A DNA stretch of 62,847 nucleotides, filler included, from Stramenopiles sp. TOSAG23-3 (taxonomy: Eukaryota): assembly GCA_900128585.1 (NCBI GenBank). It is 41 parts of 41 records of this genome, joined end to end, with 100 filler letters (N's around TTAATTAATTAA, not from the genome) between each part and the next. Parts side by side here need not be neighbours in the genome. Positions count along the whole stretch, not along the records: positions 1,550 to 2,998 come from LT645839.1; 40 more parts are not named here. The stretch is one strand, 5' to 3'. The notes under the pieces were generated by a model. That model saw only the letters and a program-made list of their open reading frames with translations, was not told where the DNA came from and did not search any database. This document shows, in pieces, positions 1,550 to 12,137 of this stretch. How positions within the stretch are numbered: position 1 is the stretch's first letter; each line of letters begins with the position of its first letter. The position numbers were made by a program, and so were the translations under genes.

Positions 1550-1551
1550 AG

Positions 1552-2496
1552 TTCAAACCCAACACAATACAAAAACTGTTTCGCAAGAAGAGCAAACTAA
1601 ATATAGATCTCGAATTTCACATTAAAGAACCCAATGAAAACAAGGAGTTAGTTAAAATGCAATGCGAGCTTTCCAAACAAACTAAACGAGAAGACCAAGT
1701 TATTATTAACGCGACACTTTTGATTGAGAAAATAATTCACGGCCTAAAAGAGGGGCTGAGGTATGAAATATATCCTCAGGTTTTATTCTGTATGAATTTT
1801 ATATTGTGTGGTCGATCCAATGATTTAAACATTAAGAGAATCCGTGAAGACGGCACGCATTCATCCAAGGAGACTCATTTTGTATTGGAGAATTGTACGT
1901 ACAAAGAAGAAGAAATTATTGGGACAATTGTAAACTTGCTTACAAGTAAAAATCAGAACAAAAACCATGTCAAGGAGATTTCTCTACCTATGATTTGCAG
2001 TCCCGAAGATTACGGTCTTGTGAAGCAAGGTTTGGAGTTCTTAATGACGGAAGAAAAGGCCGACATGAAATGTTATTCTTCTGTTAAATTCTACAAGAAT
2101 AAAGACAAGTGCGGCGCACCTAAATTTAAAGACGGGCAAAGACAGAATGAATGGAAAAACATTCGTAAGGTGATGGTCCAGCACCTCGAATTGAGAGACG
2201 CAATTGTGAAATTACCTGAAACATGGACGTTCGATTTCCAAAATTGTACCGGTCGAGACTTTGTTGCTTCTTTTGTTGCAGATGGTTCCTTTGAGAAGGG
2301 AAGTTTAGGCAATAACGTGGTCCACGAAACGGTCCTCGGACATACGTACGAATCGTGTGCTAATGCAGCCTATGAGAAGATAAAACTACAGAACATGCCA
2401 ACTTACAACGTAATCCTCAAGAAAATAGACGAGCCTCTGAAAATCGGAGACCGCTCAATTTCAACAGGCCTTTACTTGACGAAGAAATCTGCGTAG
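1552..2496 (+). CDS. Protelomerase/telomere-resolvase-like tyrosine recombinase (5'-partial)
   Basis: Frame open from the contig edge; ordered catalytic-type motifs CGRSNDL (R), TSKN (K), TGRDF (R), VLGH (H), AAYEKIKL (Y). Confidence 0.65.
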   Translation, partial: FKPNTIQKLFRKKSKLNIDLEFHIKEPNENKELVKMQCELSKQTKREDQVIINATLLIEKIIHGLKEGLRYEIYPQVLFCMNFILCGRSNDLNIKRIREDGTHSSKETHFVLENCTYKEEEIIGTIVNLLTSKNQNKNHVKEISLPMICSPEDYGLVKQGLEFLMTEEKADMKCYSSVKFYKNKDKCGAPKFKDGQRQNEWKNIRKVMVQHLELRDAIVKLPETWTFDFQNCTGRDFVASFVADGSFEKGSLGNNVVHETVLGHTYESCANAAYEKIKLQNMPTYNVILKKIDEPLKIGDRSISTGLYLTKKSA

Positions 2497-2870
2497 AATT
2501 CAACCAAGCTTTGCTTTGGCTTAAGTTCCTCCAGAACTCCGCTTCCGAATTGCAGATCTTTACAATGTAGAAACTTGTATGGATAGAAGCGATCTTTAAA
2601 CCAGTCCCCTTTTTTTAACATCTTGGAGACGCGCCGTGCGTCAACCTTTAGCAAATCCTCCCCCTTTTTAAATATATAATATCCCTTATTTTTTACGAGG
2701 TATTCGTGGACGTCTTTCTGTAATCTATACTTGGGGGTTTTCTTAGACTCCCTTACTTCAAAAGGACGACCGTTTTGGTCTATTGCGTCGGCACCTTTCC
2801 CCCGTTTTTTTGCATTTAATAATTTGATTATCTTGTTTTCATTTACTGTATGGAATGATTTCGCCGCCAT
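2472..2870 (-). CDS. Small basic PD-(D/E)xK-like nuclease
   Basis: Complete 132-aa ORF with N-terminal helix E and GADAIDQNGRPFEVR (D...ExR); overlaps the recombinase 3' end by 25 bp. Confidence 0.55.
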   Translation of the reverse strand: MAAKSFHTVNENKIIKLLNAKKRGKGADAIDQNGRPFEVRESKKTPKYRLQKDVHEYLVKNKGYYIFKKGEDLLKVDARRVSKMLKKGDWFKDRFYPYKFLHCKDLQFGSGVLEELKPKQSLVEFYADFFVK

Positions 2871-3248
2871 GTTAGTATATGAAATTATTTTTCAGAGTTT
2901 ACGTATTGTTGCTCCTTGTAGTTTTGCAAAGAGGTTCTTCCCCTTCTCTCGATTTTGATTGAAATAGTCGTAGACAGAAAACTTGGAAATCCTTCGCCNN
3001 NNNNNNNNNNNNNNNNNNNNNNNNNNNNNNNNNNNNNNNNNNTTAATTAATTAANNNNNNNNNNNNNNNNNNNNNNNNNNNNNNNNNNNNNNNNNNNNAT
3101 TTCAAAGATTTACTAAACTTTTTAAAGATGCCCTCAGAAATCTTTCCATTGGTATCATAAAAGTTATCGCCCAGAATTGTTAAAAGAAACGGAAGATGAT
3201 GGAAAAAGTAATAAATACTTACATTGACACAACATTTGTATAATATAG

Positions 3249-7739: not shown

Positions 7740-9184
7740 GCGCAGCTGAAAGTGTACAAGCGCACATTTAAAGAGATGCATGGGAGGATGCCGCAGAAGG
7801 AAGACATTCAGCATAGGCCCAAGATTTTGCATTTATACAAACAATACAGTGCCCTGCAAAAGTCGACGGCAACGGTGACGGAAGGTGCCCCGCGCGTCAA
7901 AGAGCAAGAAAATAGGAGCACGTTTGAGGCAAATAGTAGCAGCAGCCACCCGGGAGAATCCACGAACTTATGGTTGACGCGGAAAGACCTTCCGGACGAC
8001 AGAGGCGGTAGCAAAAATCCAAGAAAGCGAAAGGGCTTGGGCGAATTCGACGGGGGGAGGCTCGATAAAGTGAGCAACACCGTTGCTCACGCGCACCTAA
8101 AGTCAAAAAATCGTGGAAAGCGCCTGCTTGGCGCTCTGGGCTTTCCTTTGCCGAAAAGCAAGCGGGCGGCGGCGCAGGTTGCGCGGCATTCGAAACGCGC
8201 GCCTTCTTCCGACGACGAGGACGCGGGGCTGTGGGGCGGTGAACCATCGTTGTTTATGAAGCGTGTGAAAATGAACCAGGTCTCAAAACAAGCGGCCAGA
8301 GCGCCGCCGCCGGCCGATGTGGCTCTCGGCACCACTCAGAGGACGAAGGCAACCCCAGCCCCTGGGACGGACGAAGTGGTGGCTAAAGGGCGGGCGGGCC
8401 AGCACGGTTTTCGCAACAACGAAGCTTCCCTCCGTCATTCACACTGCTTGTTGCTTCCAGTGAAACATGTGGCCAAGGCCGCGCCCCCCAAGGGGCCCAC
8501 AACTGTACATACACCGTCCGAAACGGAAGAAGCCCCGTGCCCCGCCGGTCCCGGCGGTGGTCTGGAAATCGGGCCCAGCGCCCCCGAATTCTACGCTCCC
8601 GCAAGGAAACCGCTGGTTAAACTTGGAGAAGCGGTTGATTTCCAAAAAATATCCGCCATTTCCCCTGAAACGACAGAAACTTGCAAAGGCTATGCAAAAA
8701 CGAAACCTGAGCTACCAGGTCCAAAACGAGCGCTCGCTCCCCAGACGGGCGAAAGCACTGAAAAACAAAAAGTTCAGAAATCGAAACATCGCCCTCCTAA
8801 GCCTGCCACGGACCGAAAGTCAGCCTCGAATTCAGGGCAAATCAGCGAAAATTACGTGCGCATAAATTTGAGAAAGCGCTGGAAGGGGAGGAGCAAATTG
8901 GGCAGCGGGAAATACAGAGCACACAAAGAGTTCATGAGCAAGCGAAACAGCAACAGGTCAAACAAGGGCGGCGCGGGCCGAAAGAAGAGTTATTCGATGA
9001 ATAGCGGCAGGGACATTATAGATTCCTTGATCGAGGCCGAAGATGTTGCCGGCAAGAGTGAGGAAGAAAACCTTGTGAAATGTGAGGGTCACGGCCTCGT
9101 GTGCAAAAAATTAGTGGTGAAAAAGAGTGGCGTGAACAAAGGCAGGCCATTCTTTGTGTGCCCGCTGGATCGTGCTCAGCAGTG
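7740..9184 (+). CDS. RECQL4: RecQ4/Sld2-like protein N-terminal part with GRF zinc finger (partial at both ends)
   Basis: Sld2-like F...HGRMPQKEDI...LYKQYSAL, ENYVRINL motif, GRF finger CEGH...VKKSGVNKGRPFFVCP. Confidence 0.7.
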
Positions 9185-9284
9185 NNNNNNNNNNNNNNNN
9201 NNNNNNNNNNNNNNNNNNNNNNNNNNNNTTAATTAATTAANNNNNNNNNNNNNNNNNNNNNNNNNNNNNNNNNNNNNNNNNNNN

Positions 9285-9542
9285 AACTGCCCGTAGGTTA
9301 TTTTCCGCTTGTTCGTTTATCAGACTTATACAGTTGTTGTGTGTCTGTAACTGGTATTCGCCCGCCTGTTGTCTCTGGAGCACTCCTAAATACCAATGAG
9401 TTGACTTCACATTGATAGGGATCAAGATCTTGTTGAAAACTTTTTTACTGGGCGACCGTTGTATCCTTTTTTTAATGGTTCTCAAGATCCTGTCGGTCGG
9501 AAGGTGGGACAACAGTACGTCTGCTAAGTATGAATCTAGTCC
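9285..9542 (-). CDS. Ulp1/C48 cysteine protease-like fragment
   Basis: KILIPINVKSTHWYLGVL catalytic-His motif; no clear start; runs off the contig. Confidence 0.55.
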
Positions 9543-9614
9543 TGTACGTATGTATTATAATAAGAGATAATAATCTTACAGCTTTTTTCATCTTAAATGG
9601 TTTCGTCTACCTCA

Positions 9615-10607
9615 TCATTTGTCGGCACTGTCACCTTTGCCGTTGTTAATGGCTTTAAACGGGGTCCACCCGCAATGCGCACAGCCAACGCAAACGGACG
9701 CTAGTTGTGGCTCTAGTTCATTTCGTTTCATGTGCATGTGGTTAATATTTTCTTGCGCAGTCAATATGTTAGTTTTCTGTTTTTTTGAAATGAATATGTT
9801 CCTCTGCGATATGGCAACGTTTATTTTTTCACTCAATTTAAAGTAGGAATATTGGGCATTCTCAATCTTTTTCCCTTCTCTTGCCAGCAAATGCCCGCTT
9901 CCCAATTCATAAACCATACCACAGGCTCCACACAACCCTCTAGATAGTAGTGGCCCGAGCTCACTTGACAATACATCCATTTTTTCCAAATTGACCATTC
10001 TACTGTTCATGTCTTCCTGTTTAAGCGTCACTTCCACGACATCCACCGCAGCCTCTGGGGCACTCATGTTGTGTGCAAAGCCATGGATAGAAATCTTCTC
10101 TTGGCCCTGGGATAAGACGACGGATGTTATAAAACCAACAAACTGCTCCATGGTCTTTTTCAATTTGAACTTTACAGGATCGCCCAGGCGAAGCCTCCTT
10201 TTTGCAAAATCTATCATCCAAAAACATCTTCGCAACAGCAGCCTGCTGCAATTGCTGCACCTAGGTGAAGCGGATTCATCGGGGGCTTTTCCAGAGTCGG
10301 CAGCACTTGCGGCTTCCAGCTCACAATCTAAAAGGTTCTTATGAAAGCAGAAGAGGCAAGTCATGTAGTCCTTGCCCGTTTCCGTTGTTAAAGCAATTCT
10401 AGCAAATGGCCCAGCGATTTTCATATGCCCAATTTTTGGAATGTAGCTCCCCTTTGGCCAAACTTTTTTGGGATACCACACTGGAGAATTAATGTTGAAC
10501 CTACCGCTATTGTCAACAATTTTTGCTATGTCATCGTTAGATTCAGCTTTGGGAGAGGACACCAATCCACCTACTCCGTTATCATTTCGCTCTTTAGTTT
10601 CCAATTC
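9615..10607 (-). CDS. Hypothetical protein with several CxxC pairs
   Basis: Long ORF; CLFC, CSNC, CGAC, CVGCAHC. Confidence 0.7.
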   Translation of the reverse strand, partial: ELETKERNDNGVGGLVSSPKAESNDDIAKIVDNSGRFNINSPVWYPKKVWPKGSYIPKIGHMKIAGPFARIALTTETGKDYMTCLFCFHKNLLDCELEAASAADSGKAPDESASPRCSNCSRLLLRRCFWMIDFAKRRLRLGDPVKFKLKKTMEQFVGFITSVVLSQGQEKISIHGFAHNMSAPEAAVDVVEVTLKQEDMNSRMVNLEKMDVLSSELGPLLSRGLCGACGMVYELGSGHLLAREGKKIENAQYSYFKLSEKINVAISQRNIFISKKQKTNILTAQENINHMHMKRNELEPQLASVCVGCAHCGWTPFKAINNGKGDSADK

Positions 10608-11573
10608 CATAGAGAGAGCACATGTGCACTTAGTTACAAAAACAATAAACTGCAATCGTCATATCATGAATGACCCTTCGTGTTCGATTTCTGATAAACA
10701 TGATCGAAAAGTGTTAAAAATTGAATAATNNNNNNNNNNNNNNNNNNNNNNNNNNNNNNNNNNNNNNNNNNNNTTAATTAATTAANNNNNNNNNNNNNNN
10801 NNNNNNNNNNNNNNNNNNNNNNNNNNNNNGGCGGATGTCCCAATACATTTGTACTCATAAACTTGAGTACCAGGAACAAGCTTGCGCCACATTTGAAATT
10901 TTCCCGGGCCATTCGCCTGATCACACCCACGCAGGCCATTATTTATTGATAGGTTTATGTACTTAATACATTACATTATTCTGGCCTGAGCGTGTAGAGT
11001 TATCAGCACAGCTTACATAAGGATGCTATTGTTGATATGAAGGCTTAGAATCTCTTCTACCGAATGGCTCCTCCCATTCTTCTCTATCGAGAATTAGGTA
11101 AATTCCCCCTGAACGAATATTTATTATATTTGTCTCGACATGAATTAAGGATGATGCGAAGTTGGCAATTATTTAGTTGAAAACAACAGAGTAGAGGCAA
11201 TAAAGGGTAGGGTATCTGAACATATCCTTAATTTCAAAAAGCTTAACTCGATCAAGAACAACTACCAACTCAGTTGGTAATAACAAAACAACAACAACAA
11301 ATACTGCCATTTTAAAATTTGCAAGAACAGTTCTTGTAGTCGTCCTTCTCTCCTCCCTAAAAAAAAAAAAGATAATACGTAACTACTACTACGGAAGAAA
11401 CAAACGTCATCACCAATAAAAAATATTGTCGACTAAAGGAGTTTTTAGTTGATAAACGCATTGTTATTTGTTATATAGCGTTTTAATCTTTTGTTGGTTG
11501 TTTTGTTTTAGTAATTTAACGGCAGTACGTTGGCAAAAGGGTGTCTGTGGAACCGTACCCCCTCCCTGCCGCG

Positions 11574-12137
11574 ATGAAATTGATACCGCAAGAAAACAGT
11601 TTGATGGAGCGGAAAAGTGTCATTTGCAAAGGTAGTACTATGGTAAAGAAGGGATTTGTACAGATTCTCTTCGATATTGTGAACGACGAACATAACAAAA
11701 CATATGTTGCTTGGCATGATAATGGGCTGAGTGTAGCAATCTGGAAGCCAAAGGCGTTCGCGGAAAATGTCCTTCCGGCCTACTACAACCATAAAAATTT
11801 CAACAGTTTTGAGCGTCAGCTAAACTTTTATGGCTTCAATAAAATGGGCATTAATGAATCGAAACCGAGCAAGAAACGTACCCGGCGAGGAGACTCTGTG
11901 AAATTCAAACATCCCCAGTTCCGAGCGTCCGACCCGAACTGCCCAAAAAAGATTGTTAGGAGGTCTCGGCCGAAGCAAAATAGGAAATTGGGGATCCGAA
12001 TCAAAGAGGTGAAAGCTGTAAAGGACACTCTGGAAAAGGAGAACCAAAGAATTCGCAATGAAGTTGCGAATTTGCTGAACTCAATACTCGAGTCACCGAA
12101 TTATGATTACACCGAAATTTTTGAATTGTTGGATTGA
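11574..12137 (+). CDS. Heat-shock factor (HSF) DNA-binding domain protein
   Basis: FVQILFDIV...VAW...F..NVLPAYYNHKNFNSFERQLNFYGFNK...FKHPQF, followed by a coiled coil. Confidence 0.92.
   Translation: MKLIPQENSLMERKSVICKGSTMVKKGFVQILFDIVNDEHNKTYVAWHDNGLSVAIWKPKAFAENVLPAYYNHKNFNSFERQLNFYGFNKMGINESKPSKKRTRRGDSVKFKHPQFRASDPNCPKKIVRRSRPKQNRKLGIRIKEVKAVKDTLEKENQRIRNEVANLLNSILESPNYDYTEIFELLD

Follow-up and report, generated by a model that had tools for sequence, protein, structure and literature searches.

Hairpin telomere resolvases, or protelomerases, are known from Agrobacterium tumefaciens, where TelA belongs to a bacterial linear chromosome, from the phages N15 and phiKO2, which encode TelN and TelK, and from Borrelia, the source of ResT. 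Their palindromic target, the replicated telomere junction, often lies beside the gene. Little is known of how the ends of linear protist-virus genomes are replicated and completed. Coccolithoviruses and phaeoviruses are on record as carrying telomere resolvases, and the link of these enzymes to a cut site, drawn from long reads, is recent. The enzyme is listed as a coccolithovirus core gene in PMC10222054; in PMC13236599 it is described as conserved in phaeoviruses (EsV-1, FsV-158 and Ectocarpus endogenous viruses), in which long reads turn back on themselves at a palindrome similar to telRL of N15, a pattern that fits hairpin formation. Here we describe a tyrosine recombinase gene found in a 62,847-base stretch of assembly GCA_900128585.1 from Stramenopiles sp. 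TOSAG23-3 (the window, by which we mean the whole stretch analysed). By predicted structure and by profile comparison, its nearest relatives appear to be the hairpin telomere resolvases, and we consider it somewhat probable that it encodes an enzyme of this type, belonging to an unnamed family and carried by a double-stranded DNA virus or viral element of eukaryotes whose DNA was read along with that of the protist.

The open frame represents a genuine gene that selection has maintained. It lacks its own start codon and is already open at the first bases of the contig that carries it, LT645839.1. In public metagenomes, three close relatives (357-360 residues, at 95, 82 and 72% identity) start 43 residues earlier, which indicates that the 5' end of the window gene, about 43 codons, was lost to the contig edge and not to mutation, and that the ATG at 1657 is internal. 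The ratio of nonsynonymous to synonymous substitution rates (dN/dS) is 0.09-0.10 between the window gene and two metagenome relatives, a sign of purifying selection, and 0.24 between those two relatives. Because the window joins 41 unrelated pieces, arranged in falling order of length from 1449 down to 1420 bases, the true local context of the recombinase is limited to its own contig (Table 1).

Table 1. Features of the recombinase-bearing contig, in window coordinates; residue numbers are those of the partial window protein and of its full-length relative P0002.
Feature	Position	Strand	Remarks
Recombinase-bearing contig (second piece)	1550..2998		1449 bases, linkers on both sides
Telomere-resolvase-like tyrosine recombinase gene	1552..2496	+	open frame, 314 residues, stop 2494-2496
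First catalytic Arg codon (R88 partial/R131 full-length), R-x-N-D-L-N	1813..1815	+	invariant column; aligns with TelN R275
Catalytic Lys codon (K133/K176), P-S-K	1948..1950	+	invariant column; aligns with TelN K300
Second catalytic Arg codon (R235/R278), G-R-x-F	2254..2256	+	invariant column; aligns with TelN R383
Catalytic His codon (H264/H307), L-G-H	2341..2343	+	at least 90% conserved; aligns with TelN H416
Nucleophile Tyr codon (Y274/Y317), Y-E-K-I-K-L	2371..2373	+	at least 90% conserved; aligns with TelN Y425
Convergent 132-residue gene, conserved neighbour	2472..2870	-	overlaps the recombinase 3' end by 25 bases
Homologue of the L002 91-residue open reading frame, last 34 codons	2895..2996	-	truncated at the contig end; 85% identity by tblastn across 34 residues

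A profile search with the recombinase through 1.84 billion representative proteins returned 56 matches at E <= 0.001 (45 at E <= 1e-10 and 11 at E <= 1e-30), each representing a cluster at 50% identity; they come from marine metagenomes, giant-virus bins and a protist transcriptome. Of the cluster of near-identical proteins, some sit on public contigs of 21,033 and 48,343 bases, and further relatives on contigs of 14.8-18 kb. We aligned 31 near-full-length sequences, made up of 29 of the 56 matches and two other close relatives; the 27 matches left out were mostly fragments shorter than 280 residues. Sequences beyond the close clade share 23-32% identity with the reference. Just seven columns of this alignment are invariant (P118, R131, R141, S175, K176, R278 and F280), and H307 and Y317 are conserved in at least 90% of the sequences. 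The ordered Arg, Lys, Arg, His, Tyr set of the tyrosine recombinase and type IB topoisomerase superfamily is present, and these residues are exactly the conserved core of the family. A first-pass annotation of the window had picked out this set from the sequence alone (R in CGRSND, K in TSKN, R in GRDF, H in VLGH and Y in AYEKIKL); all five residues are there, each on an invariant or at least 90% conserved column, and the ISLPMIC segment and the LGH-x9-Y spacing are also as first read. None of the sources consulted gives a functional name to any family member, and a word-indexed search with the 31-sequence profile returned known members only, among the matches listed. At least one member is expressed, since a collection of marine protist transcriptomes lists P0020 among its transcripts. 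P0018 (586 residues), P0020 (532 residues) and P0037 (491 residues) have long N- or C-terminal extensions that are acidic or of low complexity. In a quick tree of 30 rows, from which the truncated row P0031 had been dropped, the family splits into two halves with a Shimodaira-Hasegawa-like approximate likelihood ratio test (SH-aLRT) value of 95.

The full-length relative P0002 was modelled with AlphaFold2 from the 31-sequence alignment, and the model reached a predicted local distance difference test score (pLDDT) of 88.9 and a predicted template modelling score (pTM) of 0.86. The model depicts a compact two-domain protein of about 357 residues, with a helical N-domain followed by the catalytic domain, in which a beta-hairpin loop flanked by strands 168-171 and 186-189 holds K176, and Y317 is found where a helix ends. 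When the model was compared with the PDB by Foldseek, the first seven ranks were taken by six TelA chains and one TelK chain (E 9e-5 to 1.3e-3, probability 1.00); the best match outside the protelomerases was the Tn1549 integrase at E 0.31, followed by XerA, lambda Int, Cre, P2 Int and XerH. VIA-align, which is independent of Foldseek and was run against 48,161 representative chains, gave Z scores of 16.8 for TelA (276 residues aligned, covering both domains), 13.9 for TelK and 10.8 for the catalytic domain of ResT (153 of 173 residues at a root mean square deviation, rmsd, of 3.8 A). The best match there that is not a telomere resolvase was XerA, with a Z score of 8.1, followed by Tn1549 Int (7.9), IntI (7.5), P2 Int (7.1) and Cre (6.1). 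In the fold searches, the rows below the telomere resolvases are mostly tyrosine recombinases and type IB topoisomerases.

The same model was compared with predicted viral structures. In the Foldseek search of BFVD, the sole match at E <= 0.001 was a ResT/TelK-domain protein of Emiliania huxleyi virus 86 (EhV-86; E 5.1e-6), and the second was ORF1 of Vibrio phage VHML, a protelomerase-like protein (E 1.7e-3); no PgVV or Organic Lake virophage (OLV) protein is named among the 50 BFVD matches listed. A protein-language-model search of the Atlas placed 7 of 30 matches in a ResT-TelK_cat cluster, which we treat as a lead only. The first-pass annotation had allowed that the protein might lack the tyrosine-recombinase fold or might group with ordinary integrases. 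The predicted fold is that of a tyrosine recombinase, and TelA, TelK and ResT rank well above phage integrases, Xer, Cre and Flp. As far as the model can tell, the structure is nearer to the telomere resolvases than to other tyrosine recombinases, and this holds over both domains.

The family was also compared at the profile level with eight annotated phage protelomerases (N15, phiKO2, PY54, VP882, phiHAP-1, Valp1, HY01 and MAR). The invariant columns of these eight include R275, K300, R383, L414-G415-H416, Y425 and F428 in TelN numbering, so the LGH-x8-Y-x2-F-x-L motif cited at the outset is borne out at L414, G415, H416, Y425 and F428; the I-x-x-L-C stretch also ascribed to telomere resolvases is seen in TelN. 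Alignment of the family to the eight with hhalign gave a score of 36.7 (E 1.1e-3) over 211 columns that span the catalytic domain, with all five catalytic residues in the register given in Table 1. When the protelomerase alignment was column-shuffled, none of 60 shuffles reached the real score (maximum 20.1, mean 14.3, standard deviation 2.2), and the reversed protelomerase alignment scored 18.3. Eight lambda-type integrases of similar diversity scored 22.6 against the family, over 62 N-terminal columns only, and 28.3 against the protelomerases themselves. At the profile level, the family thus appears nearer to protelomerases than to lambda-type integrases. Fold ranking and profile comparison together favour the divergent hairpin-telomere resolvase that the first-pass annotation had proposed alongside an integrase of a linear element, and bear out its reading in essence.

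Set beside the described enzymes one at a time, the family shares parts of each. TelA (PDB 4dwp, 4e0p, 4e10, 4f41 and 4f43) is the best structural match, aligned over 276 of its 319 chain residues and in both domains, and is likewise compact, without large extra domains. It shares 12% sequence identity with the family and gives no sequence-level match; the P0002 model has, in addition, a small C-terminal beta-rich region (320-354) beyond the TelA-aligned range, and the family gene has a eukaryotic-virus context in place of a bacterial chromosome. With TelN and TelK (PDB 2v6e) the family has in common an LGH...Y-x-x-[F/I]-x-L tail and an I-x-x-L/I-C strand after the Lys. The phage protelomerases are, however, 520-690 residues long with long C-terminal extensions, their His-to-Tyr spacing is x8 against x9 in the family, and their genes adjoin an annotated telRL palindrome, a counterpart of which was not found near the family genes. 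The ResT catalytic domain (PDB 8vs5) superposes on the model as given above. The coccolithovirus telomere resolvase (ehv387; UniProt Q4A292, EhV-86), at 378 residues, is similar in length and shares the algal giant-virus setting; its likeness to the family is one of predicted structures, with 13% identity. The EhV-86 protein is recognised by the Pfam family, to judge from its UniProt name and from PMC10222054, whereas the window family is not. As described in PMC4642659, the OLV11-like Yrec of Polinton-like viruses, the Organic Lake virophage, PgVV and AaV is likewise a divergent tyrosine recombinase that is hard to recognise by sequence; we liken it to the family by that description only.

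Several lines tie the gene to viruses, as the first-pass annotation had suggested. A subgroup alignment located more distant members, with some 30% identity to the window clade and one copy per bin, at loci L003 and L004 in two giant-virus bins (G001, which holds L004, and G002). Among the genes of these bins are VLTF3, a SNF2-type helicase, a lipase and glycosyltransferases; G002 also has a nucleocytoplasmic large DNA virus (NCLDV) major capsid protein and G001 a Pox_A22 resolvase. Viral contigs scanned with the close-clade alignment and three subgroup alignments yielded no loci in those scans. Two metagenome contigs with close relatives, L001 and L002, keep the local order of the window contig: recombinase, convergent 132-residue gene, 91-residue open reading frame (ORF). 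The 132-residue neighbour shares 78% identity with the L002 ORF that occupies the corresponding position, and part of it is found in L001 too. A further relative, 53% identical, is the C-terminal third of a 405-residue ORF at 9125-10342 (+) of L015, an 80-kb giant-virus-like contig with VLTF3 and ribonucleotide reductase. The carrier is most likely a virus or element related to giant viruses.

What the neighbours do is less clear. The 132-residue protein has weak PHROG and Pfam matches only, and a PDB profile search with it gave spurious matches to designed repeat proteins only; its motifs (E...GxD...E-x-R/K) might hint at a PD-(D/E)xK-type nuclease, for which no tool result speaks. L002 continues with ORFs of 270 and 138 residues. 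The 270-residue ORF (L002 1780-2592, +), two genes downstream of the close recombinase relative, resembles viral clusters labelled Nucleocytoviricota and Preplasmiviricota, one of which includes DUF5901 in 13%, a lead only, and may be a capsid penton protein. It has no Pfam or PHROG match and no relatives in the viral contigs or the two giant-virus bins, its AlphaFold2 model is poor (pLDDT 40.1), and no paper on DUF5901 was found in full text. No tRNA genes occur in L001-L004.

If the recombinase is a telomere resolvase, a dimer would bind a palindromic junction in replicated or circularised viral DNA. Y317 would attack each strand, a few bases apart, to form 3'-phosphotyrosyl links, with R131, K176, R278 and H307 assisting the attack, and each freed 5'-OH would then join the opposite strand to leave two covalently closed hairpin ends. 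What the analysis establishes is the gene, its conservation and complete catalytic set, the ranking of its predicted fold, and its relatives in giant-virus bins. No target palindrome or hairpin end was found, so the function is inferred, as are the formation of hairpins, the site acted on and the virus that carries the gene.

A number of observations weigh against a telomere resolvase. The fold ranking, itself drawn from a model, is no proof of hairpin-forming activity. Whole-chain template modelling (TM) scores are modest (0.45-0.51) and rmsd values high (6.8-8.4 A), in part because the two domains are posed differently. The hhalign probability for the family against the protelomerases is just 19.9%, which makes that comparison supportive and not decisive, and the Arg-to-Lys spacing is 45 residues in the family against 25 in the phage enzymes. 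The match to the telomere-resolvase Pfam model that might have been expected did not appear: PF16684 (ResT-TelK_cat) detects none of the 31 members at E <= 1 and neither of the two giant-virus-bin genes at E <= 10. In the PDB, sequence and profile searches run with the protein, with close relatives of it and with the profile of the family gave no relevant match. G001 carries in its Pox_A22 Holliday-junction resolvase another route by which hairpin-ended concatemers could be resolved. Both giant-virus members fall in the half of the quick tree that does not contain the window clade; the window branch may accordingly be carried by a giant virus or by a smaller one. Finally, no long palindrome adjoins the family gene in the window contig or in L001-L004, all of them fragments, in which short AT-rich ones only were seen, and near the gene in the window contig, L001 and L002, likewise fragmentary loci, no palindrome has arms of 16 nt or more. 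The palindromes that do occur at the giant-virus loci are a 30-bp one in L003, inside a gene, and a 32-bp imperfect one in L004 of G001 (11551-11582; 16-nt arms, 81% complementary, no spacer), which is intergenic, about 580 bases downstream of the family gene, and too weak to call a target site.

To the points just listed must be added that Polinton-like viruses, virophages and AaV are reported to carry a divergent tyrosine recombinase that is read as an integrase in PMC4642659 and bioRxiv 10.1101/2022.07.28.501842. The window gene could likewise encode a conventional site-specific integrase or excisionase, one that brings the circularised genome of a virus (Polinton-like, virophage or giant) into the DNA of a host or helper virus; we take this to be possible, if on the unlikely side. 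The superfamily fold and the catalytic residues would be the same for such an enzyme, the assembly that holds the contig is a protist's, and the viral clusters that the 270-residue ORF resembles would suit it. It would also agree with the variants seen in X2, the best-matching of four small DNA runs of one organism that contain 86-91% of the contig's sampled words and may be the source of the assembly. In this source-like run 1550-2998 occurs in at least two variants, as multi-copy insertions would give, in contigs with 0 versus 9-20 differences over the same stretches. On the other side, ordinary integrases fall far below the telomere resolvases in three fold searches, and the lambda-type integrase profile finds no alignment to the catalytic domain. 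No att-like repeat or host junction is visible within the 1449 bases, and the gene order is unlike the PgVV order given in a figure legend of bioRxiv 10.1101/2022.07.28.501842.

A genome-processing or regulatory relative of the tyrosine recombinases, comparable to baculovirus VLF-1 or to a Xer-type resolvase of concatemers or dimers and engaged in neither integration nor telomere resolution, is improbable. VLF-1 proteins and nudivirus integrases are among the BFVD matches (E 0.07-1), XerA heads the matches outside the telomere resolvases in VIA-align, and G001, having its own A22 resolvase, may use the family enzyme for another step. These matches fall far short of the ones obtained with TelA, TelK, ResT and the EhV-86 protein. 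The conserved full catalytic set argues for real strand cleavage and joining, and the loss of the catalytic Tyr in many members that a purely regulatory role would lead one to look for was not seen among the 31 sequences. A cellular recombinase of a eukaryotic transposon (Crypton or DIRS) in the protist genome is very improbable: the assembly is eukaryotic, a family member is transcribed in the marine protist collection, and an Atlas cluster at rank 25 combines ALOG and Phage_integrase domains as in Cryptons (a lead only), but Pfam finds no reverse transcriptase, RNase H, ALOG or GCR1-type domain, nor any other transposon domain, in the protein, its 31 relatives, the contig or the neighbour ORFs of L001/L002, the surroundings are dense, short, intron-free ORFs with AT-rich spacers, relatives sit inside giant-virus bins, neighbour genes have viral relatives, and two poly(A) RNA runs with the same species label contain 0 reads that match the contig, a result too weak to count as a test.

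Read as a telomere resolvase, the gene would belong to a kind of enzyme that algal giant viruses are already known to encode, as a variant that has no name and that Pfam misses. A second family that standard annotation does not see would widen the picture to marine giant-virus bins and to virus-like contigs tied to a protist, and the model-based ranking suggests that hairpin telomeres may be commoner among marine eukaryotic viruses than current annotation shows. With its length of about 357 residues, the family enzyme is also a compact candidate for biochemical work.

A wider proposal, which we think unlikely, is that the family forms a separate eukaryotic-virus branch of hairpin telomere resolvases, present in small Polinton-like or virophage-type viruses as well as in giant viruses. 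Were this so, at least some of the "tyrosine recombinase integrases" of small protist viruses would be telomere resolvases. PMC4642659 treats the OLV11-like Yrec of small protist viruses and a giant virus as an integrase, and if small Polinton-like viruses were confirmed to have recombinases linked to the family, their "integrases" would have to be read differently. The preprint bioRxiv 10.64898/2026.10.13.758929 reports that tyrosine recombinases co-occur with non-protein-primed (PolA/AEP) replicases in these linear genomes and leaves the association unexplained; a separate branch, if real, would explain it. Hairpin ends and a resolvase would then solve the end-replication problem that protein priming solves in other lineages. 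In full text, no literature joining protelomerase and polinton was found, and the Ectocarpus study alone, in two versions, joins telomere resolvase and virophage.

Further searches with the recombinase added little: none of the 31 members matches Phage_integrase at E <= 1 in Pfam, the PHROGs search gave nothing useful, and tblastn against a phage collection gave no match. The contig's sampled words occur at 18-33% in marine metagenomes, and a seawater metagenome contains contigs related to it at 90-99% identity. One X2 contig extends 896 bases past the right end of the window contig, and no joints were seen in the contig-based read comparison.

The remaining pieces of the window are unrelated to the recombinase. 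Their GC fraction, taken over all 41 pieces, ranges from 0.29 to 0.62, and the pieces are separated by runs of N around the linker TTAATTAATTAA; ORFs that cross such an N-TTAATTAATTAA-N linker are artefacts and show runs of X in translation. The ten longest ORFs of other pieces were scanned, and five have Pfam matches, every one of eukaryotic type (Sld2/Drc1 and a GRF zinc finger, COR-A, TLDc, and leucine-rich repeats), which is consistent with the protist origin given for the assembly. The first contig holds an open frame that enters at the window start (1-643, +), of low complexity and rich in Asn, Gln, Pro and Ser. A GC-rich (0.55) contig carries at 7752-9182 (+) an ORF that joins an Sld2/Drc1 replication-protein domain to a GRF zinc finger and is an ordinary eukaryotic gene fragment.

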